Part shown: positions 43,505-60,912 of the stretch, piece by piece
How the letters are laid out: each line of letters begins with the position of its first letter
How positions within the stretch are numbered: position 1 is the stretch's first letter
Source: a virus
DNA: 64,000 nt
Reading direction: 5' to 3' (one strand)
IMG/VR virus record: IMGVR_UViG_2907847951_000001
Location: 2,430-66,429 of that record
Made by a program: the position numbers and the translations under genes
The notes under the pieces: model-generated
Seen by the model: the letters and a program-made list of their open reading frames with translations, nothing else
What the model was told of the DNA's origin: nothing
The model's database searches: none

Positions 43505-45443
43505 CGCGCTGCTTATCACCTTTGGTATCGACACCAGAGAGTTTGATAAGGCCCGGCAGAAAATCGACGACGGGACGAAAAATCTTCGCGAGACATCAAA
43601 GAAAAACGCCGATTACATGGAATCCCAGGGCAAGAGAGCTGCAGGGTTCTTCTCAAGCATAAAGAACGAGATGCTGGCACTGGCCGGTGTAAGCCTGACG
43701 TTTGGTGGAACGCTTGGCTTCGTTAAAGGAATGACGAATGACCTTCAGGCGCTTTCTAATCAGGCTACGGTTTTAAGGTCTTCGGCAAAAGAGCTTGATG
43801 GCTTTGGTCGCGCCGCTGAGGCGGCTGGATCCAGCGTGCAATCTATGCTGGGTTCGCTATCTGCTGTTAATGACAAGATGATGGCAGCCAGGCAAGGTCG
43901 TCCTGACTCAGGGTTTATGGGAGCTTTACAGATGCTAAGTCAGGATACTGGTATAAACCTATCCCGGTTTATGCAGGACCCTAACGTCACATCACAAGAG
44001 CTATCAAAGCAGATCCTTGAAGCAATTAGGAAAGACCCAAACAAAGACCGCGCCAGGATGGCTGGGCGCACAATTGGTTTTGATGATGCCATCATAAATA
44101 GCGCCAATTCAGGCCAACTGTTACGCAATATTGACAGATTCACTGCATCATCTGGCATTACTGACAGAAATACTAAAGCAGCAAAAGAGTTCAATGAACA
44201 GTGGACAATTCTTGCGCAAAATTTTGATGCCTTCAAAAACCAACTCTACTCAGGCCTTATTCCTTATGTTAAGCAGTTCAGCAACTACCTGAATGATATT
44301 TCGGTATGGATGCGAACTCATCCTAAGGAAATCAAAGACAGTTTCGATGCTATCTTTTCGTCTGTGAAAAGCCTCGCCTTGATAGCAAATGATGCCGCCA
44401 AGCAGGTCGGAGGATGGACGACAGCCTTAGAAATTTTAATAGGTCTCAAGGTTGCATCATGGGTTTATGGAGTAACAAAATCATTCTCAGGGTTATTTGC
44501 CCTGGTGCCCCCCCCCTGGCTTATTGCTGCCGCGGCTATTGGTACAGGCGCAAAGGCAGTCAGCAATATTTCTGATGCCGCCACAAAAGCAGACAACACA
44601 AGCTCCTTGTGGGAGTCAATAAAACAGCGATGGAACGCCGGCGGCTGGTACAACAATAAAAAAGTAAATGAGAACAAAAGCCCAGAGGACAGGAGAAGAG
44701 ATCAGGATGAAAAGTCGTATTGGGAAACGACCAAACAATACCTAGGTAAGATAGCTGATTTCTTTGTTTCTCCTGCGGGAGCCGCAGAATTATCCCCACA
44801 TCTTCAAGGCTATCAGCCTAATGTTCCGCTAAACGCTACAGCAGCAAGGCTTGGCCCAAAAGGAAAGGCGCTATTAAACGCTATGGCTGGCGAGTTCGGA
44901 TTGCTTGAAGGGAAATATGGCCTTCCTGCCGGGCTTCTCCGTGGTGTGGCTGCAACAGAATCTGGCGGCGACCCGTATGCAGTATCAAAAGATGGTGCCA
45001 AAGGGTTATTCCAGTTTATGCCAGGTACCGCAAAGGATATGGGGCTAAAGGGTGGTGATGTCTACGACCCTAAAAAATCAGCAGAAGCTGCGGCAAAATA
45101 TCTGCACTATTTGATAATGGCTACTGGCGACACGCAATCAGCTCTGCAGGCATATAACTGGGGGTTAGGAAATCTACAGAAAAAAGGTATGCAAAATGCG
45201 CCTAAAGAGACGAAAGAATATTACGACAAAGTTATGGCTAACATGAAGGCCGGAGCGGGGATGGCTATTGATAGCGTTTCTCCGCACAGGGTAAATGCCA
45301 GCGGAGAGCCAAATTTCAATATTCAAACACTGAATATCTCATCGCCGGCAACAAGCGTCGGTAAGCTCTCCCAAGACATGAGCAGAACAGCAAAAAATCG
45401 TGCGACGCTAATTGGATACGACAGCGGCCAGTCAGGAGGCTAA
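43488..45443 (+). CDS. Tape measure protein with lytic transglycosylase domain
   Basis: Helical N-part; TESGG...GAKGLFQFMP.TA...AYNWG SLT motifs. Confidence 0.9.
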   Translation: MAQVIDALLITFGIDTREFDKARQKIDDGTKNLRETSKKNADYMESQGKRAAGFFSSIKNEMLALAGVSLTFGGTLGFVKGMTNDLQALSNQATVLRSSAKELDGFGRAAEAAGSSVQSMLGSLSAVNDKMMAARQGRPDSGFMGALQMLSQDTGINLSRFMQDPNVTSQELSKQILEAIRKDPNKDRARMAGRTIGFDDAIINSANSGQLLRNIDRFTASSGITDRNTKAAKEFNEQWTILAQNFDAFKNQLYSGLIPYVKQFSNYLNDISVWMRTHPKEIKDSFDAIFSSVKSLALIANDAAKQVGGWTTALEILIGLKVASWVYGVTKSFSGLFALVPPPWLIAAAAIGTGAKAVSNISDAATKADNTSSLWESIKQRWNAGGWYNNKKVNENKSPEDRRRDQDEKSYWETTKQYLGKIADFFVSPAGAAELSPHLQGYQPNVPLNATAARLGPKGKALLNAMAGEFGLLEGKYGLPAGLLRGVAATESGGDPYAVSKDGAKGLFQFMPGTAKDMGLKGGDVYDPKKSAEAAAKYLHYLIMATGDTQSALQAYNWGLGNLQKKGMQNAPKETKEYYDKVMANMKAGAGMAIDSVSPHRVNASGEPNFNIQTLNISSPATSVGKLSQDMSRTAKNRATLIGYDSGQSGG

Positions 45444-46585: not shown

Positions 46586-47442
46586 CTTACAAAATCAGAG
46601 ATCTAAAAGTTGAATTCACTTTAACAGATGGTGAGTTTGAAAGCGGAAGAGGAAATGTTTTAACTATTTCAAATGGAAAGGTAGATTGCGCTATTTCTGC
46701 TTATGGAGGAACTTCAGCCACTCAGATGGACATGAGTGTTTGGGGGTTGTCTCTTGATTATATGGCAAAGATTAGTGGTAAGTCACAAAGACAAACACAA
46801 GCTAAAAAAAACCTTGTGAAGGTTACTGCAGATGGAGAGGTGGTTTTTTTTGGTACGATAATTTCTGCCAGAATCAATCTAACACAATCTCCTGACGCCC
46901 CGCTGGAGATAACCGCGAATACAGCTGGATATTATCAAGCACTACCAATCCCTGATACATATGTTAAAGGTGAAACCACCGCGCAAGACGTTGTAAAATC
47001 AATATGCAATCAGGTCGGGCTTAAATTCGCAAACTATGGCGTAAACACACAGATAAAAGATGTACACTTGAAAGGAAACGCCATTGAGCAAATCAACTCT
47101 ATTGCACACGATTATGGCTTCTCCTTTGAATTGAATTTAGAAACTGTTTCTATATTCAAATATGGTACAGCAAGAGATAACATCATTCCTAGCGTAAGCC
47201 CAGACACAGGCTTGATAGGTTATCCAGTCTTTTACGATTTAGGGATTGCGTTTAGGTGCATGTTCTCTTCATCAATCGTAATCGCCAGGCTTATAGATCT
47301 AAAAACAATGCTTCCAAACGCTTCTGGTAGATATCAGGTATGCGAAGGTACAACGCACTATCTATCATCAAATGTCGAAGGTGGCTTTTGGGAAACTTAT
47401 GTCGTAGGTTTCCCAATATCTCCAGGGGTAAACGATGTCTAA
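46582..47442 (+). CDS. Baseplate hub protein
   Basis: SPDTGLIGYP motif; position before spike. Confidence 0.75.
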   Translation: MTYKIRDLKVEFTLTDGEFESGRGNVLTISNGKVDCAISAYGGTSATQMDMSVWGLSLDYMAKISGKSQRQTQAKKNLVKVTADGEVVFFGTIISARINLTQSPDAPLEITANTAGYYQALPIPDTYVKGETTAQDVVKSICNQVGLKFANYGVNTQIKDVHLKGNAIEQINSIAHDYGFSFELNLETVSIFKYGTARDNIIPSVSPDTGLIGYPVFYDLGIAFRCMFSSSIVIARLIDLKTMLPNASGRYQVCEGTTHYLSSNVEGGFWETYVVGFPISPGVNDV

Positions 47443-48046
47443 AAAACGCACCGTATCTCCGGTGGATTCCAGTTGCGATGCCAATATGCTGGGGTATGTG
47501 TTCGGCAGGCTTATAGGAAACATGACCTTTGTTAAAATTGTTAAAGTCATTGAAGTCGACATATCTAAAGGCATCGTGGATCTGGAAGGCCTCCTGTATA
47601 CAGTCAATGCCAATGGGGAAAGCCTGAATGATGGCGGCAGGTTCTTTTCTATACCATACCTTAGGCTGCAAAGGGGTAGTAGTGCAGTAGTCATGAATCC
47701 AGTAGTTGGTGATATTGGACTTATGGTGTGCTGCGATAGAGATATAACCGGAATCAAAGATACCAAGACAGGATCTGTACCTACAAGCGGTCGCCTACAT
47801 AGTGCAGCAGATGGAATTTACCTCACCTCCATTGCCTGCTTGTCCACAAACCCATCTCAATACATTGAGTTTTCAGATAATAAAATCACTATCGTAGCTC
47901 CACATGGTTTGCATGTAGATGGCGATATTACAACTAATGGAACAATTACGGCGTCGGGCGACGTGATAGGCGCAGGGATTTCACTTGATAACCATGTTCA
48001 TGGTGGGGTAGCATCAGGGGGCTCAACTACGTCAGGGCCGCAATGA
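47435..48046 (+). CDS. Baseplate central spike (gpV/gp45-like)
   Basis: PVVGDIG...CDRDI and C-terminal HVHGGV metal-binding apex. Confidence 0.88.
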   Translation: MSKKRTVSPVDSSCDANMLGYVFGRLIGNMTFVKIVKVIEVDISKGIVDLEGLLYTVNANGESLNDGGRFFSIPYLRLQRGSSAVVMNPVVGDIGLMVCCDRDITGIKDTKTGSVPTSGRLHSAADGIYLTSIACLSTNPSQYIEFSDNKITIVAPHGLHVDGDITTNGTITASGDVIGAGISLDNHVHGGVASGGSTTSGPQ

Positions 48047-48495
48047 TGAAAAAACTAATGGTTATCTTGTTTTTCTCCCCGCTAGCATTGGGCGGAGAGG
48101 CGCCGGTTAAGCACCTTCCATCAACAGAGAAGGTGTCTTTTGCTTGTGATAACCAATCAAGGTTTTATTATTTCGCTGCATTTGCCTCATTGTTATATGT
48201 GGACCCAGCAATTCCTCCATCAGATATTTATGCCAAGACTGGGCGTTACAGCAATGACACCTCTGCTTTTGATTATAATAAAAAAGAGGCTGAAAAATAC
48301 GGTGAGAAAATAATGATATCTAAAGCAGGTACTGAGAGAGCAATTGATTACTTCTATCGCAATCAGGATGATGCCAAATTATTTTCCTCGATGGAGTATC
48401 AATCTTCGTTCTATAAAGTATGCATGCTAAATCCGGTAAGGTATGTTATTTCATATAAGGAACTTGAGTCATCGGGTTTTATGAGAGAGAAATGA
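48043..48495 (+). CDS. Exported AT-rich moron protein
   Basis: MKKLMVILFFSPLALG signal peptide; low GC. Confidence 0.7.
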   Translation: MMKKLMVILFFSPLALGGEAPVKHLPSTEKVSFACDNQSRFYYFAAFASLLYVDPAIPPSDIYAKTGRYSNDTSAFDYNKKEAEKYGEKIMISKAGTERAIDYFYRNQDDAKLFSSMEYQSSFYKVCMLNPVRYVISYKELESSGFMREK

Positions 48496-48499
48496 ATGT

Positions 48500-49048
48500 T
48501 CATTTGCTCATCCCTAACATAGAGCGAATAAATGAACTAAAAGTAGATTTTTTATTTGGTTTCTCTTCTTCATTTTCTAATAAAATGTGTAGTTCACAAC
48601 CACAGCCAAATTCCATTCCTGGAAAAGACTGGCCGTAAGGTGTCTGGCATCCATTTTTAATCACAAAGATTGCGTCATTCAGACTTTCATGGGTTTTCCG
48701 ATTGGTAGCCTTGCAACTTCCGGCTCTAAACTTCCATTTGCCATTTTTTATTCCTTGACTGATGGCAGCGTTTTTTGCCCTCTCTGAGCTGGCTTTGCCT
48801 CTAAAAGATAAACTAATGATGGCTGATTGCTTCTCATCTAGACCAAAGTGAATCGCGATCTGCTTCCTGAAGGAATAAGGATCTCTGCCGTTGTTGCATT
48901 CATCTCTGTAAAATTTTTCTAATGAAGTTAACGCTCCCTTTTGCCTATATGGATTGAATCCCATGAAAGAAATTGCGACCTGTTCAGCCACGTCTTTATC
49001 AAGCATGGCTAGTTTTATGATGTCATCTACAATATCCTGTTTTTTCAT
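48500..49048 (-). CDS. MuF/gp7-domain paralog downstream of mnt
   Basis: Manual alignment to the C-terminal half of 33270..34067; TAATG overlap with mnt. Confidence 0.75.
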   Translation of the reverse strand: MKKQDIVDDIIKLAMLDKDVAEQVAISFMGFNPYRQKGALTSLEKFYRDECNNGRDPYSFRKQIAIHFGLDEKQSAIISLSFRGKASSERAKNAAISQGIKNGKWKFRAGSCKATNRKTHESLNDAIFVIKNGCQTPYGQSFPGMEFGCGCELHILLENEEEKPNKKSTFSSFIRSMLGMSK

Positions 49049-49302
49049 TATTTATCTTTAGCATTGCTTTGATAGAGGGAGCTAAGGGTTTCATAAACCA
49101 TTTTTTTGACTAGTTCAGACTGCTCTTCTGCAATGGCCATGGCATTGTCGTTAGATGTTGTCGATGGTTTATCAAGCGCATCTTGCACGATTTGAAGCAA
49201 CTCAGCATTGAACGATCGCCCATTGGCGATAGCTCTATCCTTAAGTTTTTTCTTCACATCAGCCGGCATTCGGAATGTGAATTTTGGTTCATCTCTGGCC
49301 AT
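49048..49302 (-). CDS. mnt: Mnt repressor
   Basis: MARDEPKFTFRMP...NGRS.N.ELLQIVQDAL.KP...EQSELVKKMV matches P22 Mnt. Confidence 0.9.
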   Translation of the reverse strand: MARDEPKFTFRMPADVKKKLKDRAIANGRSFNAELLQIVQDALDKPSTTSNDNAMAIAEEQSELVKKMVYETLSSLYQSNAKDK

Positions 49303-49324
49303 ATTGAGTTCCATTGTTTAAGAA

Positions 49325-49377
49325 TTGACATGATAGAAGCAGTCTACTATATTCTCAATAAGGTCACGGTGACCCCA
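49325..49377 (+). promoter_or_regulatory. Pant with Arc and Mnt operators
   Basis: TTGACA-17-TATATT; ATGATAGAAGCAGTCTACTAT (P22 Oarc-like); GGTCACGGTGACC palindrome at the Omnt position. Confidence 0.85.
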
Positions 49378-49387
49378 TGGAGGCAAG

Positions 49388-49549
49388 ATGAAAGGCATGA
49401 GCAAAAATCCGCAGTTCAATCTGCGATGGCCGAAAGACGTTCTGGATATGGTTCGCAAGGTTGCGGAAGAAAATGGAAGGTCTGTTAACTCGGAGATCTA
49501 CCAGAGGGTAATGGAGAGCTTTAAAAAAGAAGGACGCTTAAGTGTTTAA
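49388..49549 (+). CDS. arc: Arc repressor
   Basis: Manual translation MKGMSKNPQFNLRWPKDVLDMVRKVAEENGRSVNSEIYQRVMESFKKEGRLSV, nearly identical to P22 Arc. Confidence 0.95.
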   Translation: MKGMSKNPQFNLRWPKDVLDMVRKVAEENGRSVNSEIYQRVMESFKKEGRLSV

Positions 49550-49617
49550 AAAGTTGAAGCCCCAACTGCTGTAACAGTCAGGGCTTCGGTATCAACAAAC
49601 CACCTAGGAATGATGAC
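49550..49617 (-). ncRNA. sar: Sar antisense RNA
   Basis: GAAGCCCCAACTGCTGTAACAGTCAGGGCTTC hairpin in the arc-ant gap as in P22; minus-strand TATACT -10 in the ant start. Confidence 0.75.
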
Positions 49618-50601
49618 ATGACAAGTATAGCAATTCTTGAAGCTGTTAACACCTCTTACGTCCCATTCAACGGGCAGCAAATTATCACGGCGATGGCTGC
49701 CGGTGTTGCATATGTTGCGATGAAACCAATCGTTGAAAACCTCGGCATGAGTTGGTCTACTCAGCAAACAAAGCTGATGAAACAACTGGAAAAATTCAAC
49801 TGTGTTCATATGAACATGGTTGCTGCTGATGGCAAGTTGCGCAAACTTCTTTGCCTCCCCCTGAAGAAGCTCAACGGCTGGCTTTTCAGCATCAACCCTG
49901 AAAAAGTTCGTGCTGATATTCGCGACAAGCTGATTCAGTATCAGGAAGAGTGCTTTACCGCCCTTCACGACTATTGGTCTAAAGGGATTGCCATTAAGTC
50001 AGCGCCTGAGACCACTGTCGATGAGCGAACTCCGCTGCGCGGAATTGTTAATCGCATCATGGGCAAGTACGGCCTGACTTATCAGTCAGTGTACAAAATG
50101 GTTCACAAAGAGTTTGGGGTAAGGCACATCGATGAGTTATCCCCCAAGCAAACTGCAGAAGCTGTCGAGTACCTTGCCTCGAAAGCAATTGAAGGCGAGT
50201 TCATTGCAAGGAAAGAGAAAAACAACTTTTCTGGTGATTATAATTTCCCGCTTCAAAGCGCAGACCCTGCCAGCAGATCTTTTGGGAACGTTTGGATGAC
50301 GCCAAAGGTTATTTTGGATGAGAGCAATCCAGCTCCTGAGCTGGAACTACTGGATAGGCTTGAAAAAGATGGTTATTGCGTCGATGGCGTAAGGCTGCGC
50401 ATACATTCAATGTATCAGATAGCCAAATATCATCTTGATATGCAGGCTGCAATATCTTCTGCTGCGGTCAGCCTGGGTTTCATAAATGACTCTCTGAAAT
50501 CCCAGTCCAAGGAAAGGGGGCTTAACGTCATCTTCAATGGAAGCAAGTGTATGAAAGAGGGGCCCATAACAGGACTCCCCGAAAGGTCCCTAAAAAGATA
50601 A
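49618..50601 (+). CDS. ant: Antirepressor Ant (P22 Ant N-domain)
   Basis: [18 protein letters not shown]...[25 protein letters not shown] matches P22 Ant. Confidence 0.92.
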
Positions 50602-50610
50602 AAATCCTTA

Positions 50611-50635
50611 AACCTCGCTTCGGCGGGGTTTTTTT
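50611..50635 (+). terminator. Intrinsic terminator after ant
   Basis: AACCTCGC-TTCG-GCGGGGTT TTTTT. Confidence 0.75.
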
Positions 50636-50650
50636 ATGCCCGGAGAAAAC

Positions 50651-51010
50651 GTGATCACCTCTTCTTTGTATCTAAACCCCGACACGTGGGATATCGAACT
50701 TGATGATACTGGCAACATTGCTGTGGTGGAAAATCCCTACGCATGCGCTCAGGACGTGGCAACCGCGTGCTCTGCGTTTCGTGGCGAGTGCATTTACGAC
50801 GTAAATATTGGTGTTCCTTACTATCCGACAATTCTCGGCAAAAACCCTGGCTCAGGCGTCGTACAAAGCGCTCTGGAGGCAGAGGCTCTACGCCTGCCTT
50901 ACATCGCCACGGCTGATGCCACGGTCGTCACAAATCGCGCTGAGCGAGTTTGCGGCGGGGTGATTGTAGTAACCGATACAAACGGCCTTTCCCGCACCGT
51001 TAACCTTTGA
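50651..51010 (+). CDS. Baseplate wedge protein (gpW/gp25-like)
   Basis: WDI.LD..GNIA...AQDVA.AC..F.GE..YD...G.PY motif. Confidence 0.8.
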   Translation: MITSSLYLNPDTWDIELDDTGNIAVVENPYACAQDVATACSAFRGECIYDVNIGVPYYPTILGKNPGSGVVQSALEAEALRLPYIATADATVVTNRAERVCGGVIVVTDTNGLSRTVNL

Positions 51011-51017
51011 GGCTAAA

Positions 51018-52250
51018 ATGTCCACAACAATAACCACCTCGGTGCCATCAGTCACATTTTCAACTACCGGCTTAGATGTCCCTGACGAGGCTGATATCCT
51101 CGCCGGCCGGCTGACAGACCTTTCCACTGCTCTCGGTACGTCGATGAGCAAAGAGCTTACTACGCCGCAGGGTCAGATTGCTGTCGCCGACACCGCTATC
51201 ATTGCGGATAAAAACGACCAGTGCCTCGCCATTATGAACATGGTCAACCCGGATTACTCAACCGGCAGGTGGCAGGATGCTATCGGGCGCATTTACTTCA
51301 TCGACCGCAAAGGCGCTTCAGGGACGATTGTGACGGCGACTTGCTCTGGTCTTGTAGGAACACTCATCCCTGCCGGATCGATCGCTCAGGATGCGAATGG
51401 CTATCTCTATTTCTCATTATCTGATGCCACCATCGGCTCTGATGGTTCGGCATCTGTTGAATTTCAGAATCAGACCACTGGTCCAATCGCCTGCCCAATC
51501 GGTGAGTTAAACACGATTTACAAAGCGGTATCTGGATGGTCAACCATTACCAACGTTGCTGCAGGAGTTCTCGGGTCAGATGAGGAGGGGCGTGCAGCAT
51601 TTGAGTATCGTCGCAGGCAGTCAGTTGCTAAGAATGCCAGCAACACGCTTGCAGCAATTTATGCGGCCATTCTTGAGGTTGACGGCGTCACTGATGCTTA
51701 CGTCACCGATAACAAGACCAGCACCGCTGTAGAGAAAGGCGTAACTAATTACAGCATAGCGCCACACTCGTTTTATGCGGCTGTATATGGTGGTTCGGAC
51801 GCGGATATTGCCAAGGCGATCTGGAGCGCCGCCCCTCCTGGTGTAGATATGAATGGTGACACGTCTTACACCGTTCAGGACACGGAAAACTACGTTTATC
51901 CCTATCCGTCGTATGACATCAGATGGGAAACGCCAACGCCGACAAGCATGTATGTCGAGGTTCAGATTGTGCAAAGCAACCTGCTACCGAGTGACGTTAC
52001 AAACCAGATTAAGGCCGCCATCCAGAAGGCATTCAATGGTGAGGACGGCGGAACCCGGGCGCGCATAGGGTCTAAAGTTTTTGCCGGCCGTTATTACTCT
52101 GGCATCCAGGCGATTGACCCTAACAACATGGAAATACTCGGCATCACGCTATCCCTGGATGGTCTTTCTTATGGGCCGTCCGTGGAGTTTGGCATAGATG
52201 AAATCCCGACTTTGGATGATGCAAATATTCTGGTGATTATCTCAAGCTAA
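51018..52250 (+). CDS. Baseplate J-like protein
   Basis: TPQGQ, GRWQDAIGRIYF, G...E....FE.RR motifs. Confidence 0.88.
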   Translation: MSTTITTSVPSVTFSTTGLDVPDEADILAGRLTDLSTALGTSMSKELTTPQGQIAVADTAIIADKNDQCLAIMNMVNPDYSTGRWQDAIGRIYFIDRKGASGTIVTATCSGLVGTLIPAGSIAQDANGYLYFSLSDATIGSDGSASVEFQNQTTGPIACPIGELNTIYKAVSGWSTITNVAAGVLGSDEEGRAAFEYRRRQSVAKNASNTLAAIYAAILEVDGVTDAYVTDNKTSTAVEKGVTNYSIAPHSFYAAVYGGSDADIAKAIWSAAPPGVDMNGDTSYTVQDTENYVYPYPSYDIRWETPTPTSMYVEVQIVQSNLLPSDVTNQIKAAIQKAFNGEDGGTRARIGSKVFAGRYYSGIQAIDPNNMEILGITLSLDGLSYGPSVEFGIDEIPTLDDANILVIISS

Positions 52251-52801
52251 TGAATACCTGGGTCTGCGTTGCCTCCGGGCCATCGCTGACGCGCGAAGAC
52301 TGCATCCTCGTCGAAGAGTCACAACTCCCCGTTATCGCAGTTAACTCCAGTTGGGAAATGATACCCGGTTGTCAGTACGTCTATGCCGGCGATCACACCT
52401 GGTGGGCTGCGAACTTTAACGATGTGCCTGCTGACAAATGCAGATTTACCAGCGTGCATGCAACGGCCACTCAATTTTCCATCAACTATTTCGAGCCACC
52501 TGTCAGGGGATCATTTAACTCAGGGCAGAGAGCCATTCTCCTCGCAAAGCATCTGGGCGCGAAACGGATAATCCTTCTCGGTTACGACTGCTCTCTAAAG
52601 GCAGGCATTCACTGGCATGGGAAGCATGAAAGAGGGTTGCGTAATCCTGATGCGGATAGCCTTAAGCGCTGGCGTGGAGAGTTTCGTCAGGTTCTGCCTG
52701 TTGTAGGCGAGGGAAACATCATCAACTGCTCAAGGCATACCGAACTGGATATGTTTCAGGTTGGAAATTTAGAAGAAGAACTATGCAAAAGTTTTTTATA
52801 G
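52250..52801 (+). CDS. Maf/DUF115/CstII-like putative CMP-sugar glycosyltransferase
   Basis: VASGPSL, VIAVN, NSG..AI.LA..LGAKRI.LLGYD, HWHG.H, IINCS motifs. Confidence 0.7.
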   Translation: MNTWVCVASGPSLTREDCILVEESQLPVIAVNSSWEMIPGCQYVYAGDHTWWAANFNDVPADKCRFTSVHATATQFSINYFEPPVRGSFNSGQRAILLAKHLGAKRIILLGYDCSLKAGIHWHGKHERGLRNPDADSLKRWRGEFRQVLPVVGEGNIINCSRHTELDMFQVGNLEEELCKSFL

Positions 52802-53670
52802 ACGGGATGCTCGGCATTGGTGACAACATCATGCAGCGACCATTTGTCAAAAAGATGGTCGAGAAAGGAAATGAGGTCTGGATTAAAACGGCCACCCCGG
52901 AAATCTACATCGACATACCCGGGCTTCATTTCGTCAAATCGGGTACATCACTGCGAACACAGCATCGCAACGAAGAAGCATCTGGTGTTGCGTGGGAAGC
53001 GCTTCCTGAAGATCACCTCATTATCCGGAAGAAAATCTTCTACGGCACTGTTGAGCTAAGTCGAGGAAGTGTCTTTGACGCCGGCAGGCGGCAGTTTGGC
53101 ATCGAGCCAACCAGATTAGACCTTCCATCATTCACGCTTCCAGATATCGGCATCCCGACCAATAAGAAGGTGGCTCTCATCAGGCCAACTACAGAGCGCC
53201 GAGAGTGGCACAACGCCGCCAGAGGTCCGTTAAACGGACACGTTGACCAGGCCTCCAGATACCTTGCCCAACTAGGTTATTTCTGTATCAGCGTAGCGGA
53301 TTTACAGCCAGGCGTTGAGTGGATCCCCGATAACGAGCCATTTGCTCATCTGAAGCTCCACGGCGGCCAGTTGAAGTTAACCGAATTAATGGCCCTGGTA
53401 GAGCGCTCCGATGTTGTTGTGACGGGCAGTGGACTGATTTCACAGATGGCTTTTGCATATCGCAGGCACACCATTTTTCTCGGTGGTGGCTGTGGCGGGT
53501 GCAATCACCACTCAAAGATAACTGACGGACGCCTGATGGATTTATCCCGTTGCCTGTTCCTTTATCCAGACGATTACTGCATGTGCCAGCAGATGAAGCA
53601 CAACTGCAACAAGCACATTTCCGACCTCCATGAAAAGCTGTCCCGGTGGATGCATGAGAAAAATCTCTGA
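52783..53670 (+). CDS. GT9-like (heptosyltransferase-like) glycosyltransferase
   Basis: LGIGDNIMQRP N-terminal motif; LTELMALVERSDVVV..SG...MAFA; C-terminal Cys cluster. Confidence 0.7.
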   Translation: MQKFFIDGMLGIGDNIMQRPFVKKMVEKGNEVWIKTATPEIYIDIPGLHFVKSGTSLRTQHRNEEASGVAWEALPEDHLIIRKKIFYGTVELSRGSVFDAGRRQFGIEPTRLDLPSFTLPDIGIPTNKKVALIRPTTERREWHNAARGPLNGHVDQASRYLAQLGYFCISVADLQPGVEWIPDNEPFAHLKLHGGQLKLTELMALVERSDVVVTGSGLISQMAFAYRRHTIFLGGGCGGCNHHSKITDGRLMDLSRCLFLYPDDYCMCQQMKHNCNKHISDLHEKLSRWMHEKNL

Positions 53671-54265
53671 AATTATTGAGTCAGAACTTAGCTTCTTTCC
53701 TGAGCTGGGGTTCGGATACTTCCCTGTGCCGAAAAATCGCCCTTATGACGAACGGTACTTTGAGAAATACAAAGCAATGGCTGACACGGAAATGGGCCGT
53801 CAGTTGACAGACTTCAGGGTTAACTTTGTCCGTAAGCATCACCAGGGTGATGTATGCGACGTTGGCATTGGCTGCGGCCAGTTTGTTGAAGCATGTGACT
53901 GCAGCGGCTTTGATGTTAACCAGGCTGGCATTGACTGGCTTGAGGCTGAAGGCAGATATCTGGATTTCTACAAACAAGGATGCGACGCGCTGACGTTCTG
54001 GGATGTGCTTGAGCACATTGATGAGCCAGATAAGGCGATCGCCTGCGCCAATAAATGGGTTTTCGTCTCCATACCCGTCTTCGACAGTGCAGAACACATT
54101 CTCAGAAGCCGGCACTTCCGCAAGGATGAGCACATTTTCTATTTCACCAATGACGGCCTGATCCGCTGGTTTGGGGATAACGGCTTTGTGCTCGTCGAAT
54201 CGGTAAACACCGAATCAGAAATAGGCCGCGACGGCATAACAACGTATGCATTCAGACGGGAGTAA
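53654..54265 (+). CDS. Class I SAM-dependent methyltransferase
   Basis: DVGIGCGQF and TFWDVLEHI motifs. Confidence 0.85.
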   Translation: MRKISEIIESELSFFPELGFGYFPVPKNRPYDERYFEKYKAMADTEMGRQLTDFRVNFVRKHHQGDVCDVGIGCGQFVEACDCSGFDVNQAGIDWLEAEGRYLDFYKQGCDALTFWDVLEHIDEPDKAIACANKWVFVSIPVFDSAEHILRSRHFRKDEHIFYFTNDGLIRWFGDNGFVLVESVNTESEIGRDGITTYAFRRE

Positions 54266-54267
54266 TT

Positions 54268-54867
54268 ATGGAAAGTTACGCTGCTGCGATAATGAGGCAG
54301 TACGTCAATTCAGAAAAACTCCTTTCCCTCATCGAAACATTCAACCAGTCCGTCGGCCCTGACAAATTCATCGAAGACTTCTATGACCTGGTCTGGAACA
54401 TACAAACAGCGACCACTTACGGCCTGAATGTGTGGGGGAAAATTGTCGTAATAGACAGAACACTGACCGTAACAGAAAACAAAGTCTATCTCGGTTTCAA
54501 GCAAGCTCTTAGCCACCCTCCGGTAGTAGATGACCCACAGCCATTCAATCAGGCTCCGTTTTACGTCAGGGACTCGAACGTTACTTCAACCGTGACGTTA
54601 ACCGATGATGCCTACCGAAAACTCATTATGTGCAAGGCGATGGCAAACATCTCCAACTGCACAATCCCGGCAATGAACAGAATGCTGATGTTCATGTTTG
54701 GTGAAAGCGGCGTCTGCTACGTGAGAAACGATGGCGATATGACCATGAGCTACGTGTTTGAGTTTGAGCTAAGCATGGTAGAGCTGGCGATTGTTCAGAG
54801 TTCTGGCGCCTTGCCTGCGCCGGCGGGAGTTACCGTAAACATTATACAGGTATCCAGTTCATCATGA
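54268..54867 (+). CDS. Baseplate wedge protein (DUF2612)
   Basis: QY.NS..L, W.I.TA..YGL.VWGKIV, L.DD.YR.LI..KA..NI motifs. Confidence 0.85.
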   Translation: MESYAAAIMRQYVNSEKLLSLIETFNQSVGPDKFIEDFYDLVWNIQTATTYGLNVWGKIVVIDRTLTVTENKVYLGFKQALSHPPVVDDPQPFNQAPFYVRDSNVTSTVTLTDDAYRKLIMCKAMANISNCTIPAMNRMLMFMFGESGVCYVRNDGDMTMSYVFEFELSMVELAIVQSSGALPAPAGVTVNIIQVSSSS

Positions 54868-56162
54868 ATTCTTCTGATATTCCAGATCGCTATACCAAAG
54901 CGTTCAGCGTTAATGGCAACAAAAACCCCATCCCAACAGACTCATCAACTACAACCCTTGGGAATGGTGAAGCCACTTTTGATTCTGGTTTTCCTCCGTT
55001 AACCATGACGGCCATCAGCGCCGGCGGCATTCCTCCAGACGGGAAAGACATGAACGGCATCCTGTATTCGGTCACCATCAAGCAGCAGTGGAATGATGCC
55101 GGCATGGGATACCCGTTCAACAGCACATTTGCTGCAGCCATTTCAGGTTATCCAAAGGGTGCAATTCTGCCGTCCAGCGATTATGGCGTGCTGTGGTTGA
55201 ACCAGACCAACGCGAATACCACAAACCCTGAAGGCACAACCGGTTCATCTACCGGGTGGATCCCCGCATGGGGATGTGGCTCAGCCGCAGTCAGCATTAG
55301 CTCTGCCAATGTCACGGTCTCAAATATCTCTGCAGCAAATCCACGCCTGATTCTTTCAGGCGCGCTGACTGGTAACCGCTATCTCTACCTTCCACCATTT
55401 GTGAAGGACTGGACGATTGAGAACAACTGCACTGGCTCAAATTTTTACGTGGTAATTTCTACGACTGCCAGTGGCGGAACAACAGTCATCTCGAAGCCCG
55501 GAACGGTAATCAGTGTGCATGGTGACGGCACCAATATCACATCACTCCAGGATGTACACGGAAAGGCTATTTTCGCTTCAAATGGCACCTTCTCATTCAC
55601 CGCTCCAGCAGGCGTAACTTTAGTAAAAGCAACCGTTACTGGCGCAGGTGGCTCAGGAAGCGGCTGCCAGGCTTCGTCGGTCAATGAATCTTACAGTGGC
55701 GGTGGCGGTGGCGCTGGAGGGACGGCCATAGGATGGGTCTCTGTCGTACCCGGCGTGACTTATTCAGTTGTGGTTGGGCGTGGCGGATTGTCAGTTTCTG
55801 GTGCAACACCAGGGAATGACGGTGGCGATTCATCATTTGCTGGTCTGCTGTTTGGTCGAGGCGGAAAAGGGGCAAGTAAAGCCAGTATTACCAACTCTGC
55901 TGGCGGCGATGGCGGTTTAGCTTCAGGCGGCGACATCAACATCAAGGGCGGCACTGGTCTTGACGGACAATCAGGCATCTACATGCTGACTGGTGCCGGC
56001 GGCGCTTCTTACTGGGGCGGTGGCGGACGAAATGGCGCAGCAGGCGGTATTGCTGGAACCTCAAACGGGTCTGGCGGCGGCGGTGCTTACGACACCGGTT
56101 TCAGCAGCACTGCGTACTCATCTGGTGCAGGCGCAAACGGCATCGTCCTGATCGAATACTAA
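54864..56162 (+). CDS. Tail fiber protein with C-terminal Gly-rich domain
   Basis: GFPPLTM...GGIPP.GKDMNG.L anchor; GAGGSG...GGGGGAGG...G.V.IEY. Confidence 0.85.
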   Translation: MNSSDIPDRYTKAFSVNGNKNPIPTDSSTTTLGNGEATFDSGFPPLTMTAISAGGIPPDGKDMNGILYSVTIKQQWNDAGMGYPFNSTFAAAISGYPKGAILPSSDYGVLWLNQTNANTTNPEGTTGSSTGWIPAWGCGSAAVSISSANVTVSNISAANPRLILSGALTGNRYLYLPPFVKDWTIENNCTGSNFYVVISTTASGGTTVISKPGTVISVHGDGTNITSLQDVHGKAIFASNGTFSFTAPAGVTLVKATVTGAGGSGSGCQASSVNESYSGGGGGAGGTAIGWVSVVPGVTYSVVVGRGGLSVSGATPGNDGGDSSFAGLLFGRGGKGASKASITNSAGGDGGLASGGDINIKGGTGLDGQSGIYMLTGAGGASYWGGGGRNGAAGGIAGTSNGSGGGGAYDTGFSSTAYSSGAGANGIVLIEY

Positions 56163-56240
56163 AACCCCTTCAGATTTTCAATTTCCTCGCCATTTACGCG
56201 CGAAAAACAATTACCCATCTTATTTTATTCGGGACAAAAA

Positions 56241-59200
56241 ATGGCAAACACAGATACTGCCAATGCGAAGCAATACGCAACGCTGGCCCAGGTAGCCGCT
56301 GCCCAGGCAAAAATTTATGCCGATCAGTCTCAGGAGGCTTCAGGTTTCGCTGATGCTGCGCAGGAGTCGGCAGACCAATCAGCCACCTCTGCTGCAAGCG
56401 CGGCGGATTCGGCGGCGGCTGCATCAACATCTGCATCATCTTCAGCCATAAGCGCAGCTGACTCCGCGACTAGCGCAAACGCAGCGTCCACGTCAGCCCT
56501 TACTGCGGCTGAGTTTGGCGATAATAAACTTACTTTTGCGGATACTGCAACCGGCATAGCTGGCACAATAAACGGTCAATATTTCCGTGTTCCTCAGGGT
56601 GTTGGTAATGTTCTTGCATTTCGTTATTACAAAAACAACGCAGGCGTAGCGCAAGAGGTTGCTGAATACCCAGGGCAGGGGTCAATCACAAATAGCATCA
56701 GACAATATGCAACATTAACTGCGGCTCAAAATGATGTTTCAGCTGGTAACATCTTAAATGGCGGGTATTGCTGGGTGCGAAAATCAGGAAATTCTACGAT
56801 TTCAGATGAGTACCTGAATACGTCTGGGACGCTGGTTGCAACAGGGAGACAAATACTGACTCAGTCAGCATTTTCGTATTCTCGGTTGTCAAATATGTAC
56901 GATGACGGTGGCTTCAGAGCAGGCGTGCCACCCAAAATGAAAAATGCCACATCAACATATGTCACAGGTAAACTGGTAACCATGCCAGATACATACCTAA
57001 TTGGCATAGGTTGCAAGTACGGCGTTAGACTTCCTGATGGTGATACATATACCAGCGTTCTGGCCTCTCCGGTAAAAATCCCTGAGCCGCTGTATGGTAA
57101 ATACGTGCTGATGTCAGCGCTTGTTTATGCTGCTGATGGCAACTTTGGGTCTGATTCAACGTGCTCATATCTGGCAGATGCTGGTCTGAACAACATCACC
57201 AGCCCAACTGTGCCATATGTCAATTATCGCCGTGATGTTTCCTCTACGGTTCGTTGCTATGCCACTCTGGCATTTGTTCCTGCTGATGGCAGTGCACGCT
57301 ATCTCCACATAGGCAAGGGAGGTCTTGGAGCACCTTCAGATGCACGGCTCATTACCGGCCTGTGCTATGTGTTTAGCGAATCGGTAATGAATCTGGACAG
57401 CATTAAATGGGACGCGCCATACCCGGCCAGTGACTTTGCAATCAACCATCGCGAACTGGATAAAAAGTTTAATTATCACGGCAACATCATCCCGTTCGGC
57501 GATATGGATGGTGGGGCATTTAACCCGCTTATTCGTTCCGGCTCATCCGTAGTTGCTCTCACCACGCAGCAGTCGCTTATTGAGCGCGGGTATAAAAACG
57601 CCCTACAAGCCCGTACCGGCGGAACAGAGTTTATTCGCAGCACCGGCAATGCAGACCTGCGCGGGAAAACTGTTTGCGGTTATTTTCTTATTTATGCCGA
57701 AACTCAGAGTGATGTTGATAACCTTGATTACGCTAACATTTTCCAGAGCAATGATGGCTCGCTGGTACAAATTACCTACAGCAACGATATCGGTAAGAAA
57801 AAAGTCGGCGATTACCTGTGGCTATTGTGGGCGAAAGGCACCGTTAACGCGTATACCAACCCTGTTACCGAGCTTTGCCTGGGCTGGGCGACAGCGCCTG
57901 TCACCGCGAACCGGTTTGCCACCGGCTTTTATCTTTCCGTCGGAGCAACGGACTACGATATTCAGCCGCTGCTCTGGCGCCTGACAGAGCGCAACGTTGC
58001 CAAGCGCGTAGTCAACGATCTGGACACGTTGAACCAGGTGCGCTTCACAAACCAGGATGCGCTGCAGTTTAATTTCGAGCGCAACCTGCTGACGTATGGC
58101 GACATGGATGGAGGGAGCCTTAACCCTCCTGTTCGTGGTGGGTCGGCTGTTGTTTCCCTGACCACTCAGCAGTCACTGCTGGATCGCGGATATACCAGGG
58201 CAATTAAGTGGCGCACCGACGGGTCAGCGACGGAGTTTGTTGGCTATACCAGTACTACTGATCTGCGTGGGAAATACGTTGGTGCCTATTTCCTGATTTA
58301 TGCAGAGAATCCCGCTGACGTAGCGGGTATCGCCCGAGCGCAGATATTCCAGGTTAATGGCGCATCTCTGGTTGAGATCACCTATACCACTGAGCGCGGT
58401 ATCAAAACCGTAGGGCCGAACTTGTATCTTGTGTGGCAGGCAGGACAGGTTAGCACCTATACCTCACCCGTTTACACTCTGTGGGTGGGGTCAGGAGTCG
58501 CACCTGCTACGTCTGAGCGCTATGCGACGGCCTTCTTCCTGATGGCGGCAGATACCGCAATAACAATGGACCCTGTGCTGCGTCGTCTGACGGAACGCAA
58601 TATGGCAAAGCTCGTAAACGAGCAATACACCAGTGCATCTGCAGAGTTCATCAGCGAGAAAATCACCGTCAAAAACAGCAGTAAAATTGTCATTCTGGGT
58701 GATAGTTACACGGAGTCAATGCACGCTCTGAAAGACAAGAGCTATGCGGCGATGGTCTCCATGCTGACCGACTGGCGAATAGAGCCGTATGGCGTTTCCG
58801 GAAATGACTGTGTGATGATGAACCAGCGCATCATCAGCAACAGCCCGACATTTGGGTGGGGTATTCGCGATATGGGAGCGTCTCATGTTGTGATTATCAG
58901 TCAGACAAATGATGCGGCAAAACGCAGCATCTCCTACCGGTACTGGCAGGATGACATGCAGCGGGTCATTCAGTCGGTCAGGGCTCTTGGCGCGAAGCCT
59001 ATTTTCAGCACTGAGCATCCGCAAATTGATAACTGGGCGTATGCGCAGACCCGTCAGGTTGCCGAGAAATTTGGCGCTGAATTCTGGGATATTACTACTG
59101 AAGCTCGAAACTTCGAGTTCAATAGCGATGGACGTTTATGGGTAGGCTCTCACCCAGGGACCAGAACGAACACACAACTGTGGTCAGGTATGCTGAAGGG

Positions 59201-60536
59201 CGTTAACGGAATGCCGCGACCCAGAAGCGGGCTTAAAATCTTCCGTGTCCGTCCTGGGTATACCGTCGGTACCGTTGCCGATCTGGTCTATGACGATGTA
59301 ACTGACCGCGCGCAACGATTTAAAGAAATAACGCTGGGGCATACCGCCATTCCGACGGCAGACCAGAGTTATTTCGATAATCTGAGCGTGTATAACGCGA
59401 TCAACACTACCCGTACCCGCTATAACTCTGAGTATGGGCAACTTGCGCAGGGCACGGCGCTGGCATTCACAAATTATGCACTGGTGGAAGCCATTCTTCC
59501 GTCGTCTGCTGATGGGGTGCAGTCTGTACGCCTGGTCACTGCGGGTAGCGCTGTAACTGTGTACGCCTTAAACCGCCTGACACAGCCAGCGTTCACCACG
59601 GCTATCTATAAGGCATTCACGGGAGTTACGGCAACGCCAGCTGTTGGTGATGTTTACAGTGATGGGACCACCTCATTTACTGTTGTTGGGCAGTATCAGG
59701 ATAAATTGATTTGCAATCCGAATGCAGCCACAGCAAGCAGCGGGACGCTAACGAAAGTCAGTGGTTCCGGGCCATCATCCATTACCTATACAGGCGCAGA
59801 GCAGGGCTTCGACCCGGCGTATTACACGCACTACGCGGATAAAAAAGGAACCTGGGAAGCTGTAACTGGTGCGATCACGTCACCAAATATCGTGAAGTAC
59901 ATGCAGGGGGACAAAATATCGTTCCTGATCGCCGCATCAGGTAGCTTTAGCCTGTCAGATATTCATGTTGAATATACAGGCCGTGACAGCAAAAGCCTGG
60001 ATAACTGGCAGCCGGTGGAGCGCCGGGCGAGGGGAGCGGAGCTTCTTGCTCAGGGAAAATTTGGTGATGATGAAATCTCCGGATGGACCCGGATCGGAAG
60101 CGTACCTCGCTATGCCCCATCAGGTGGAAATCCGCCGGCAGGATGCACAAAGGTGGTGGTCGTTGACGACACCAATTATATCACCCAGGACTTTACGGCA
60201 CCGACTGAAGCAGATGCCGTGGAGCTGGAGATTAAGGTTTGGTGCCGTCGATGGGTATCGCTATTTGATTCATCAACAGATTTTTCTACTTCAACCATTA
60301 CCCCTGACTCATATGACCTGTCAAAGCTTCGCGTTCTGATAGGTCAGCAAGCCACTGGTAAAGAAGTGGTTGCCACTGAATTCTCTTCGTCTGCAGCCCT
60401 GGGATGGAGAGAGATAAAATTCAGATACTGGCATACCGGTAACAATGCATCTCCGACCAAAAACCTGCGGCTGACCGTAATGGGTGAGGCAGGGAAACAG
60501 ACCGAAGTCGCATTTGTTTCCATCAGGGAGGTTTAA
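56241..60536 (+). CDS. Tailspike/receptor-binding protein with tandem repeats and SGNH esterase domain
   Basis: Ala/Ser stalk, GQYFRVPQG anchor, ILGDSYT/GVSG/TND/SHP SGNH blocks. Confidence 0.85.
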   Translation: MANTDTANAKQYATLAQVAAAQAKIYADQSQEASGFADAAQESADQSATSAASAADSAAAASTSASSSAISAADSATSANAASTSALTAAEFGDNKLTFADTATGIAGTINGQYFRVPQGVGNVLAFRYYKNNAGVAQEVAEYPGQGSITNSIRQYATLTAAQNDVSAGNILNGGYCWVRKSGNSTISDEYLNTSGTLVATGRQILTQSAFSYSRLSNMYDDGGFRAGVPPKMKNATSTYVTGKLVTMPDTYLIGIGCKYGVRLPDGDTYTSVLASPVKIPEPLYGKYVLMSALVYAADGNFGSDSTCSYLADAGLNNITSPTVPYVNYRRDVSSTVRCYATLAFVPADGSARYLHIGKGGLGAPSDARLITGLCYVFSESVMNLDSIKWDAPYPASDFAINHRELDKKFNYHGNIIPFGDMDGGAFNPLIRSGSSVVALTTQQSLIERGYKNALQARTGGTEFIRSTGNADLRGKTVCGYFLIYAETQSDVDNLDYANIFQSNDGSLVQITYSNDIGKKKVGDYLWLLWAKGTVNAYTNPVTELCLGWATAPVTANRFATGFYLSVGATDYDIQPLLWRLTERNVAKRVVNDLDTLNQVRFTNQDALQFNFERNLLTYGDMDGGSLNPPVRGGSAVVSLTTQQSLLDRGYTRAIKWRTDGSATEFVGYTSTTDLRGKYVGAYFLIYAENPADVAGIARAQIFQVNGASLVEITYTTERGIKTVGPNLYLVWQAGQVSTYTSPVYTLWVGSGVAPATSERYATAFFLMAADTAITMDPVLRRLTERNMAKLVNEQYTSASAEFISEKITVKNSSKIVILGDSYTESMHALKDKSYAAMVSMLTDWRIEPYGVSGNDCVMMNQRIISNSPTFGWGIRDMGASHVVIISQTNDAAKRSISYRYWQDDMQRVIQSVRALGAKPIFSTEHPQIDNWAYAQTRQVAEKFGAEFWDITTEARNFEFNSDGRLWVGSHPGTRTNTQLWSGMLKGVNGMPRPRSGLKIFRVRPGYTVGTVADLVYDDVTDRAQRFKEITLGHTAIPTADQSYFDNLSVYNAINTTRTRYNSEYGQLAQGTALAFTNYALVEAILPSSADGVQSVRLVTAGSAVTVYALNRLTQPAFTTAIYKAFTGVTATPAVGDVYSDGTTSFTVVGQYQDKLICNPNAATASSGTLTKVSGSGPSSITYTGAEQGFDPAYYTHYADKKGTWEAVTGAITSPNIVKYMQGDKISFLIAASGSFSLSDIHVEYTGRDSKSLDNWQPVERRARGAELLAQGKFGDDEISGWTRIGSVPRYAPSGGNPPAGCTKVVVVDDTNYITQDFTAPTEADAVELEIKVWCRRWVSLFDSSTDFSTSTITPDSYDLSKLRVLIGQQATGKEVVATEFSSSAALGWREIKFRYWHTGNNASPTKNLRLTVMGEAGKQTEVAFVSIREV

Positions 60537-60612
60537 TGCCGTGCCACGGACGGCAACCCAATTGCAAACAGGACATTACGGCTGTCATGAATATTGATAG
60601 CCGTAACCTCTA

Positions 60613-60655
60613 TTGACCCCCCCATCGATAAAAACTACTGTATATAATAACAGTA
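60613..60655 (+). promoter_or_regulatory. SOS promoter with LexA box
   Basis: TTGACC-17-TACTGT; TACTGTATATAATAACAGTA = CTG-N10-CAG. Confidence 0.85.
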
Positions 60656-60672
60656 TCAATCGGAGGCAGAAC

Positions 60673-60912
60673 ATGCACCGTCAGTCAGACATCAACCAGG
60701 CATTCCGCGAGTCGGTATTGCGTAACCCCAAAGGCTACCAGTATCTGCATACAAAGGATTTTGTGTCAGCGCTGCGCCGGCGCGGGCTGCACTTTACCGA
60801 CTCTGAGGCCAATGCATGGATATCGAGAGAGCAAAGCTATTTTGTCGACAAAACGCCAGACCATAGCGAAAACCGTTTGTGGATGATGGCGAACATGGGG
60901 AGGATTATCTGA
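60673..60912 (+). CDS. LexA-controlled small protein
   Basis: GGAGG RBS right after the SOS box; 79 aa. Confidence 0.75.
   Translation: MHRQSDINQAFRESVLRNPKGYQYLHTKDFVSALRRRGLHFTDSEANAWISREQSYFVDKTPDHSENRLWMMANMGRII

Follow-up and report, generated by a model that had tools for sequence, protein, structure and literature searches.

Why should genes for three enzymes lie in the middle of a baseplate operon? The question is posed by a provirus from IMG/VR (record IMGVR_UViG_2907847951_000001, 66,429 bases, completeness rating 100%), of which the 64,000 nucleotides from position 2,430 to position 66,429 were analyzed here (the window; coordinates below count from its first letter). Between 52250 and 54265, three genes whose products we call P1, P2 and P3 separate the gene for baseplate protein J from the DUF2612 baseplate gene, with all five open reading frames (ORFs) on the + strand; the bacteriophage of similar name is always referred to below as phage P1. 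A tyrosine integrase gene lies immediately upstream of the window in the same provirus record, and the nearest protein homologs of the cassette products belong to named Klebsiella variicola and K. michiganensis. Our analyses indicate that the trio very probably constitutes a glycan-building module of the late phase of infection; that its glycan is attached to proteins of the virion is the best reading of its purpose, and is held tentatively.

All three are real genes: each has a PHROG match, and the AlphaFold2 models of P1 and P2 reach pLDDT values of 95.4 and 94.4, respectively. An original prediction, made from the letters of the window alone, had described three overlapping genes, coupled to J through the motif TAATG and devoid of a visible promoter or terminator, that interrupt two genes usually found side by side. 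This description is borne out by the ORF coordinates, by Pfam matches on both flanks and by the junctions as read from the sequence (Table 1). The reading frames of P1 and P2 overlap by 19 nt and those of P2 and P3 by 41 nt (17 nt if P3 starts at Met9, position 53654, a residue nearly invariant in alignment A3), and a gap of 2 nt separates the P3 stop codon from the DUF2612 start; the cassette is translationally coupled at both of its ends. A scan of 49500–61500 leaves the cassette without a + strand site of either kind: none of the six promoter-like sites found is on the + strand (shuffles, 13.0 ± 3.6), and no + strand terminator-like site occurs between 50631 and 55897. The GC content of the cassette windows (0.48–0.53) is equal to that of the flanks, with no compositional break. 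That J and DUF2612 are customary neighbors is confirmed by 11 of the 25 rows listed, in which a J-, wedge- or gp47-like gene stands below the same DUF2612 match, and by Pantoea phage PA-1, the closest DUF2612 relative, which is cassette-free and in which J and DUF2612 overlap by 4 nt. No Pantoea record is present among the 29 phage records with a P2 relative, and a megablast search of 50600–56200 against phages returned zero matches. A look for transcript data listed no RNA data set, the two entries listed being wastewater metagenome runs with 0.05 of the words. The absence of transmembrane segments, also part of the prediction, is confirmed by a Kyte–Doolittle scan of P1–P3 (maximum 19-residue means of 0.92–1.15), and the absence of flippase and sugar-synthesis genes is confirmed for the two families covered, since GtrA-type flippases (PF04138) and CTP_transf_3 cytidylyltransferases (CMP-sugar synthetases) have no match across the whole 66-kb provirus.

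Table 1. The cassette, its flanking genes and its conserved motifs (A1 and A2 are alignments of 40 sequences each for P2 and P1, respectively; A3 is the alignment of P3 relatives).
Feature	Position	Strand	Evidence
Baseplate J, upstream boundary	51018..52250	+	PF04865 E 6.9e-16; phrog_6 baseplate wedge; 63% identity to PA-1 ORF077
J stop/P1 start junction TAATG, one base common	52248..52252	+	read from sequence
P1, putative first glycosyltransferase, PmgO family	52250..52801	+	183 aa; phrog_4603 E 6.8e-51
P1 residues 10-13 G-P-S-L, invariant N-terminal loop	52277..52288	+	40-sequence alignment A2
P1 residues 121-123 H-W-H, invariant His motif	52610..52618	+	alignment A2
P2, distant GT9-like GT-B glycosyltransferase, TibC-like	52783..53670	+	295 aa; phrog_6804 E 2.1e-69
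P2 residues 11-14 G-I-G-D, Gly-rich loop	52813..52824	+	G11, G13, D14 invariant in A1
P2 residues 266-275 C-x-C-x4-H-x-C knuckle, putative metal site	53578..53607	+	C266, C268, H273, C275 invariant 40/40
P3, class I SAM-dependent methyltransferase	53630..54265 (likely true start 53654)	+	211 aa; PF13489 E 2.3e-11; phrog_6564 E 2.5e-78
P3 residues 77-83 D-V-G-I-G-C-G, SAM-binding motif I	53858..53878	+	D77, G79, G81, G83 invariant in A3
DUF2612 baseplate gene, downstream boundary	54268..54867	+	PF11041 E 3.4e-59; 72% identity to PA-1 ORF078

P2 matches no Pfam family at E ≤ 1, and hence does not match the GT9 family PF01075, and NCBIfam gave nothing meaningful. PF01075 is nevertheless precomputed on 15 of 75 clusters of P2 homologs, and the P2 family profile has a sole sequence-profile match in the PDB, WaaF (1psw, E = 3.3e-4). 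When the AlphaFold2 model was compared with solved structures using Foldseek, the top matches were the chains of TibC (4rap, E = 4e-9, TMq 0.63), followed by WaaF (1psw, E = 9.7e-8), a Veillonella GT9 protein (3tov, E = 3.3e-7) and WaaC (2gt1, E = 3.7e-5), such that the two-lobe GT-B fold of P2 matches that of solved GT9 enzymes; at the sequence level, TibC was not matched by P2 in either plain or profile searches of the PDB. Against a viral structure library, the model matched only phage proteins that are uncharacterised or labelled RfaF, GT9 or Aah/TibC.

The resemblance to TibC extends to details of the two lobes. As described in the accessible part of its structural report (PMC4358343), TibC has an N-terminal β-barrel (residues 1–97), an Asp110 in a Gly-rich loop, a four-stranded N-lobe and an iron finger formed by Cys339, 342, 358 and 370 in the C-lobe. 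Like the TibC/AAH (BAHT) enzymes (PDB 4rap, 4rb4), modeled P2 combines a GT-B fold with an atypical four-stranded N-lobe (strands 3–6, 31–35, 48–51 and 81–83, all before residue 125) and places an Asp within a Gly-rich loop near its N-terminus. A conserved, putatively metal-binding Cys/His cluster is present in its C-lobe, where the knuckle, which recalls the iron finger, occupies a loop between the last strand (257–260) and the C-terminal helix (282–292). The invariant Asp14 is a candidate catalytic base, its putative equivalence to TibC Asp110 being drawn from position and not from superposition. P2 is nevertheless shorter (295 versus 406 residues), has no N-terminal β-barrel and carries a Cys3-His set in place of the Cys4 of TibC, and is therefore BAHT-like at most, not a BAHT member. 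Further hallmarks of the BAHT enzymes are a β-hairpin thumb, assembly into a dodecameric ring and a cognate autotransporter encoded nearby. TibC and AAH act in the cytoplasm on a protein that has yet to leave the cell, and the same is proposed for P2; no autotransporter substrate is annotated among the cassette neighbors, although no search was aimed at one. WaaC and WaaF share the P2 fold, and a GT9–P2 fusion exists; P2 differs from them in being shorter, in its Cys/His knuckle and in forming a discrete family that is restricted to phages and not found in lipopolysaccharide (LPS) loci. By analogy with these enzymes, the donor of P2 may be ADP-heptose.

P1 is predicted to adopt a transferase fold of Maf/CstII type in minimal form, as a 183-residue core. 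Its match to the MptE-like Pfam family (PF01973) scores 30.5 bits, under the gathering cut-off of 34.6, and the same family is precomputed on most clusters of P1 homologs; neither sequence nor family-profile searches of the PDB gave anything meaningful. In a fold search with the AlphaFold2 model, built from the 40-sequence alignment, Maf, which glycosylates flagellin, ranks first among solved structures (5mu5, E = 5.9e-4, TMq 0.64). Within the Maf/MptE-like/DUF115 superfamily, P1 thus shares the Pfam family and the central-domain fold and, unlike Maf, has no flanking Maf domains: TMt against the 632-residue Maf chain is 0.21, and the full multi-domain architecture (~630 residues) is not reproduced. 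The ranks after Maf are taken by the archaeal pyrophosphokinase MptE, SteA and thiamin pyrophosphokinase (HPPK 8sd5 and thiamin pyrophosphokinase 3k94 are at ranks 2–8, TMq 0.42–0.49), and CstII (1ro7) is a weak match at rank 21 (E = 1.3e-2, TMq 0.39). The PHROG name of the P1 family, 'alpha-2,3-sialyltransferase', is annotation only. Besides the motifs in Table 1, N90-S-G92, L109, G111 and C114 are invariant across the 40 sequences of A2, and P1 shares 42% identity with PmgO from phage P1.

P3 is matched by Methyltransf_23 (PF13489); its profile gives weak, generic matches to O-methyltransferases of UbiG type in the PDB (E = 0.007), and a plain sequence search of the PDB gave nothing meaningful. 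The three enzyme classes named in the original prediction are upheld: the Maf-type fold of P1 by Maf as the top fold match, the GT9-like nature of P2 and its C-terminal Cys cluster by the WaaF and TibC matches and by Cys and His residues conserved in 40 of 40 sequences, and the S-adenosylmethionine (SAM)-dependent methyltransferase by the PF13489 match and the invariant motif I.

A synteny survey had been proposed together with the original prediction, and was run on 105 loci, comprising 80 IMG/VR loci kept from 310 relatives and 25 genome loci, using crude gene calls, BLASTP clustering and cluster labels taken from one representative each (PHROG, Pfam). Fifteen loci in which no P2 ORF was placed in the P2 cluster were dropped, leaving 90 for analysis, 7 of them cut close to a contig end. 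Near-duplicates were kept (locus L005 shares 97% identity with the window, and a single contig apparently underlies both L031 and L093), so the counts refer to loci and not to independent lineages. The full trio recurs in 52 of the 90 loci, with P1 and P2 in 11, P2 and P3 in 14 and P2 alone in 13. In a profile search of 1.84 billion representatives, the P2 family itself numbers 878 members with a threshold of E ≤ 1e-3, of which 560 persist when it is tightened to E ≤ 1e-30. Among the best 150 of these, 33 are at least 345 residues long, and 15 of the 33 are P1–P2 fusions in which the gene order is kept; one additional, divergent P1–P2 fusion was found via PHROG. Methyltransferase–P2, LicD–P2, GT9–intein–P2, GT9-like–P2, tandem P2 and P2–methyltransferase (P0057) proteins also exist. 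These architectures are those of enzymes that build and cap glycans, and point to one pathway. The GT9–intein–P2 protein (P0226, 1032 residues) is an observation in its own right, with a canonical GT9 domain followed by an intein with a LAGLIDADG endonuclease and then the P2 domain.

Labelled late genes adjoin the module in 69 of the 90 loci. The commonest setting is the head/connector region (33 loci, D3/PAJU2 type), in the order terminase, portal, capsid, adaptor, head closure, module, neck, tail terminator, major tail; 24 loci lie directly 3′ of holin, endolysin and Rz genes and ahead of terminase, 9 just ahead of terminase or portal, and 21 have no labelled neighbor. The baseplate context of our provirus is the rarest (3 loci), so that a tail or baseplate target, as proposed in the original prediction, is not implied by position. 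In D3, orf7, which encodes the P1 homolog, comes after the capsid gene, and orf12 and orf13 lie between the head-closure and HK97-gp10-like genes; in Mulvp2, the module is between head and tail genes, and in PAJU2 it follows the adaptor. Eowyn, a 265-kb phage with a K. variicola host, carries the full trio, and no tyrosine integrase is present in its record; because an integrase-less phage has the trio, its function belongs to lytic growth. No LPS locus was found at any of the 21 bacterial-genome loci analyzed, 14 of which have labelled phage genes nearby, 23 of the 25 genome loci are in Proteobacteria, and Atlas neighbors of the P2 family are mostly viral. The module is mobile and phage-restricted, with a function in the late phase.

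Phage P1 offers a partial parallel, as its pmgO operon also lies behind a late promoter (LPpmgL), together with C1 operators. The partners of PmgO are PmgP, a second MptE-like protein, and the unrelated PmgQ, not P2 and P3; PmgP and PmgQ were considered as homologs of P3 and P2, respectively, and rejected, as there is no homology. As described in the accessible part of a genome-wide study (PMC10695390), pmgO is dispensable for plaque formation by both CRISPR interference and deletion, which neither supports nor refutes a role in virion glycosylation. The late pmgL operon of phage P1 (locus L085, 5941–8499) comprises the two MptE-like paralogs, PmgQ with its annotation as a glycosyltransferase, and the Ser/Thr phosphatase gene ppp; the Maf-like core is thus the same in phage P1, and the enzymes that accompany it differ.

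Two further observations were made on the surveyed loci. In Erwinia tracheiphila (L094), the P2 homolog and the next gene are each represented by a pair of adjacent ORFs, as if the module had undergone frameshifts or decay. In PAJU2-type phages, the phrog_1289 label 'portal protein' (L111, 1748–2752, and cluster c20) is probably wrong: the gene occupies a slot between portal and head–tail adaptor, the expected place of a capsid or scaffold gene, and the members end in a Gly/Lys/Asp-rich, collagen-like tail.

What, then, might the module make, and on what? We propose that P1, P2 and P3 would work as soluble cytoplasmic enzymes, transcribed together with late virion and lysis genes. P1 would start the glycan, with CMP-Kdo the obvious candidate as a CMP-sugar universal to these hosts; P2 would transfer heptose from ADP-heptose, in the way that WaaC adds it to Kdo; and P3 would cap the product by O-methylation. 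CMP-Kdo and ADP-heptose suggest themselves as host donors because the cassette has no sugar-synthesis genes. The acceptor would be a virion protein of the phage's own making, which would receive its glycan in the cytoplasm as particles assemble, probably in the tail, the fibres or a flexible segment and not in the ordered capsid shell. In this scheme, we infer the donors (by analogy), the order of action, the acceptor of the methyl group and the protein target. A late module that builds a glycan of some kind is probable; that its target is a virion protein is possible, and preferred here with reserve; and the fully specified version, in which a methyl-capped Kdo–heptose glycan resembling the LPS inner core is built from host CMP-Kdo and ADP-heptose on the phage's own virion proteins, is doubtful.

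Several observations favor a virion-protein target. For the predicted models of both transferases, the solved structures that match best are protein O-glycosyltransferases (TibC for P2 and Maf for P1); the Proteobacterial hosts fit the proposed donors; and the enzymes appear soluble, in a provirus that encodes neither a GtrA flippase nor a CMP-sugar synthetase. The linkage and fusions of the three enzymes, their setting among late genes, the trio in Eowyn and the restriction of the family to phages count on the same side. The case for virion glycosylation made in the original prediction thus keeps its footing in the enzyme families and in the embedding of the genes in late operons.

Other observations weigh against such a target. 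The Ser/Thr-rich C-terminal tails that might have received a glycan are absent from the capsid-, protease- and tail-tube-type clusters of module-bearing phages, and a protein-by-protein comparison with PA-1 revealed no extra segment linked to the module except for variable fibre tips. A Gly-rich fibre domain (Gly_rich_2, PF21722) is encoded beside the module in this provirus and in none of five other module-bearing phages. No virion domain is fused to P2 in a PHROG scan of the unexplained N-terminal parts of its fusions, and no structural gene is a constant neighbor of the module in the clustered loci. Apart from TibC, most solved GT9 enzymes have LPS as their substrate, and rank in a fold search cannot fix the acceptor; the P1 fold is common to pyrophosphokinases (MptE HPPK, thiamin pyrophosphokinase); and a gene for a TET-associated glycosyltransferase (TAGT, PF20691) lies just downstream of the module in nine lambdoid-type loci. 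Finally, the D3 virion (maps EMD-70878 and EMD-70879) has been determined by cryo-electron microscopy at 3.5 Å overall and 2.7 Å at the vertices, with PAO1 named as host (PMC12749128), and in the accessible text of that paper a search for the terms 'glycos', 'modification' and 'extra density' found none of them. This silence is an absence of mention, blind to flexible, substoichiometric and tail sites; within those bounds the paper (PMC12749128) speaks against an ordered capsid shell that is heavily glycosylated.

The explanation that competes most directly is that the enzymes modify a host envelope glycan, adding and capping sugars, from the cytoplasmic side, on host intermediates bound to lipid (lipid A-core, or O-antigen, capsule or enterobacterial common antigen linked to undecaprenyl), such that the surface polysaccharide is altered or shut down during infection or in the lysogen. 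Besides TibC, the solved GT9-type matches of P2 are the LPS-core enzymes WaaF and WaaC, or have no stated function (3tov); CstII, the weaker match of P1, acts on lipooligosaccharide; the hosts are almost all LPS-bearing Proteobacteria; and P2 is found fused to LicD, a family that decorates surface glycans. Kdo and methyl groups are, moreover, chain terminators of ABC-transporter-dependent O-antigens. Set against these points are the lack of a host LPS or capsule locus among the bacterial-genome loci analyzed and of any + strand promoter-like site, terminator or GC break belonging to the cassette, its place within late operons (also in the integrase-less jumbo phage, and with the phage P1 homolog under a late promoter and repressor operators), and the protein-modifying TibC as nearest fold of P2; LPS synthesized minutes before lysis could, in addition, hardly displace that already in the outer membrane. 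On balance we regard an envelope target as unlikely. Lysogenic conversion of the Gtr type was considered separately and is excluded, because the provirus has no GtrA flippase and P1–P3 have no transmembrane segments. A reading without any glycosylation, in which P1 is a pyrophosphokinase of MptE/thiamin pyrophosphokinase type and the trio handles a small molecule or cofactor needed late, draws on the MptE-like Pfam match of P1 and on the pyrophosphokinases 8sd5 and 3k94 that follow Maf in its fold search; Maf is, however, ranked first, with a higher TMq (0.64 versus 0.42–0.49), and the fusions of P1 to a GT-B domain in 15–16 representatives, and of P2 to GT9, LicD and methyltransferase domains, render this the least probable of the readings considered.

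Hypermodification of DNA would instead see a base in replicated phage DNA glycosylated and methylated before packaging, as protection against restriction in the next host. Late expression suits a post-replicative modification, and there is a precedent, as reported in the accessible part of Pyle et al. (10.1101/2023.12.21.572611), for phage GT-B enzymes that place Kdo or heptose from the E. coli metabolite pool on 5-hydroxymethylcytosine. These TET/5mYOX clusters resemble our module in their GT-B enzymes, in the use of host Kdo and heptose donors and in lying near structural genes; unlike it, they have C5-methylase and TET partners, which are required there and absent here, and a different GT-B subtype, their glycosyltransferases resembling T4 β-GT, BshA and MshA and not GT9 (10.1101/2023.12.21.572611, likewise from its accessible part). 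A TAGT gene does adjoin the module in some phages: in nine lambdoid-type loci, a TAGT-family protein (PF20691, E = 1e-46) and a ParB-like protein are encoded after it. The provirus, by comparison, has no match to Tet_JBP (PF12851), C5 DNA methylase (PF00145) or TAGT (PF20691), and Tet_JBP is also absent from all five TAGT-bearing module phages examined, so that no hydroxymethyl acceptor base is provided for in either; P3, furthermore, is a Methyltransf_23/UbiG-like enzyme and not a DNA methylase. To our knowledge, the DNA of phage P1, which has the PmgO homolog, bears only ordinary methylation. We therefore consider a DNA target improbable. As a separate observation, the PF20691 protein and a ParB-N-like protein lie between the module and the small terminase in L009, L010, L013, L023, L024 and others, and the orphan TAGT of lambdoid-type loci may either extend the same glycan or act on DNA. 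Still less probable is that at least one of the products is carried in the virion and modifies a host or phage target early in the next host. Late expression is what packaged proteins require, the family was named putative morphogenetic in phage P1, and the original PAJU2 record (L111, AP009624, 3474–4043) labels ORF010, the homolog of P1, as 'structural protein', which would place the enzyme in the particle if the label derives from sequencing of virion proteins; the same label in Eowyn, however, is a Prokka homology transfer and not proteomics, the proteins resemble ordinary soluble enzymes and have no virion domain fused to them, and pmgO is non-essential in phage P1.

Virion glycosylation, the reading that we prefer, has relatives elsewhere among viruses. 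Chlorovirus PBCV-1 encodes cytoplasmic modules of glycosyltransferases and methyltransferases that build a methylated capsid glycan independently of the host secretory machinery; it is, unlike the phages considered here, a eukaryotic virus, and its enzymes are from different families. Closer in kind are mycobacteriophages, whose glycosylation genes are reportedly placed among structural genes. Phage-encoded transferases are described there as decorating virion proteins, as is proposed here, with glycans at the C-termini of capsid and tail-tube subunits (Freeman et al. 2023, as cited); our module differs in its Gram-negative hosts and in the lack of Ser/Thr-rich capsid and tail-tube tails. That study is the only precedent for virion glycosylation that surfaced, and a glycostain study that was negative for ten phages, none of them known from its accessible part to carry the module, has no bearing here. 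Nor does the BASEL paper, whose subject is confined to GtrABS systems of the O-antigen.

The tail region of the window also contains features unrelated to the cassette. Relative to PA-1, a second insertion (48043–50631) lies between the gpV spike gene (47435–48046, Apex motif) and gpW (50636–51010), and resembles the P22 immI region, here within a baseplate operon. It encodes an Arc/Mnt-type repressor on the − strand (49048–49314, PF03869 E = 1.3e-18, with an Mnt C-terminus), a P22-type antirepressor (49618–50601, PF10547 E = 5.5e-44) and two family-less ORFs (48043–48495, with a hydrophobic N-terminus, and 48500–49048 on the − strand). At its end, five bases before gpW, a strong hairpin resembling an intrinsic terminator (50610–50631, + strand, nine pairs and then a T run) is followed by no promoter-like site, which would imply read-through to W, J, the cassette and the fibre genes, perhaps by antitermination. 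Upstream, the protein in the tape-measure position (43488–45443) has a region of lytic transglycosylase type (phrog_2013 'lytic tail protein', E = 4.7e-166). Downstream, a 1431-residue tail fibre without a Pfam family (56241–60536) matches the PA-1 tail spike only in its first ~106 residues; by eye, it shows two similar tandem segments of ~190 residues and then a putative motif resembling GDS-type esterases.

The sequences of the module have been known since D3 and phage P1, and some database records already name its genes as sialyltransferase, GT9 heptosyltransferase and methyltransferase. In a literature search with subscription journals mostly outside its reach, we found neither a functional study of the module nor a report of virion glycosylation for a Gram-negative phage. 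If the proposal is correct, the module would represent the first system for glycosylating virions in Gram-negative phages, spread across siphoviruses, myoviruses, lambdoid prophages and jumbo phages, and would extend particle glycosylation to phages of Klebsiella, Pseudomonas, relatives of E. coli and many environmental Proteobacteria. The annotation of several hundred clusters now labelled 'hypothetical', 'sialyltransferase' or 'heptosyltransferase' would also be affected. Even with DNA or a host glycan as the target, the module would stand for a pathway that is conserved among late genes and counts 310 relatives in IMG/VR and 878 representative clusters. A direct test is within reach because tractable, classic phages carry the module: D3 and PMG1, and phage P1 for the PmgO part. 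Should virion proteins prove to be the acceptors, the particles would gain a host-like sugar coat that mimics the LPS core, by means of enzymes other than those of the mycobacteriophages, with consequences for how therapeutic phages are recognized by antibodies and cleared, for the stability of particles and for adsorption.

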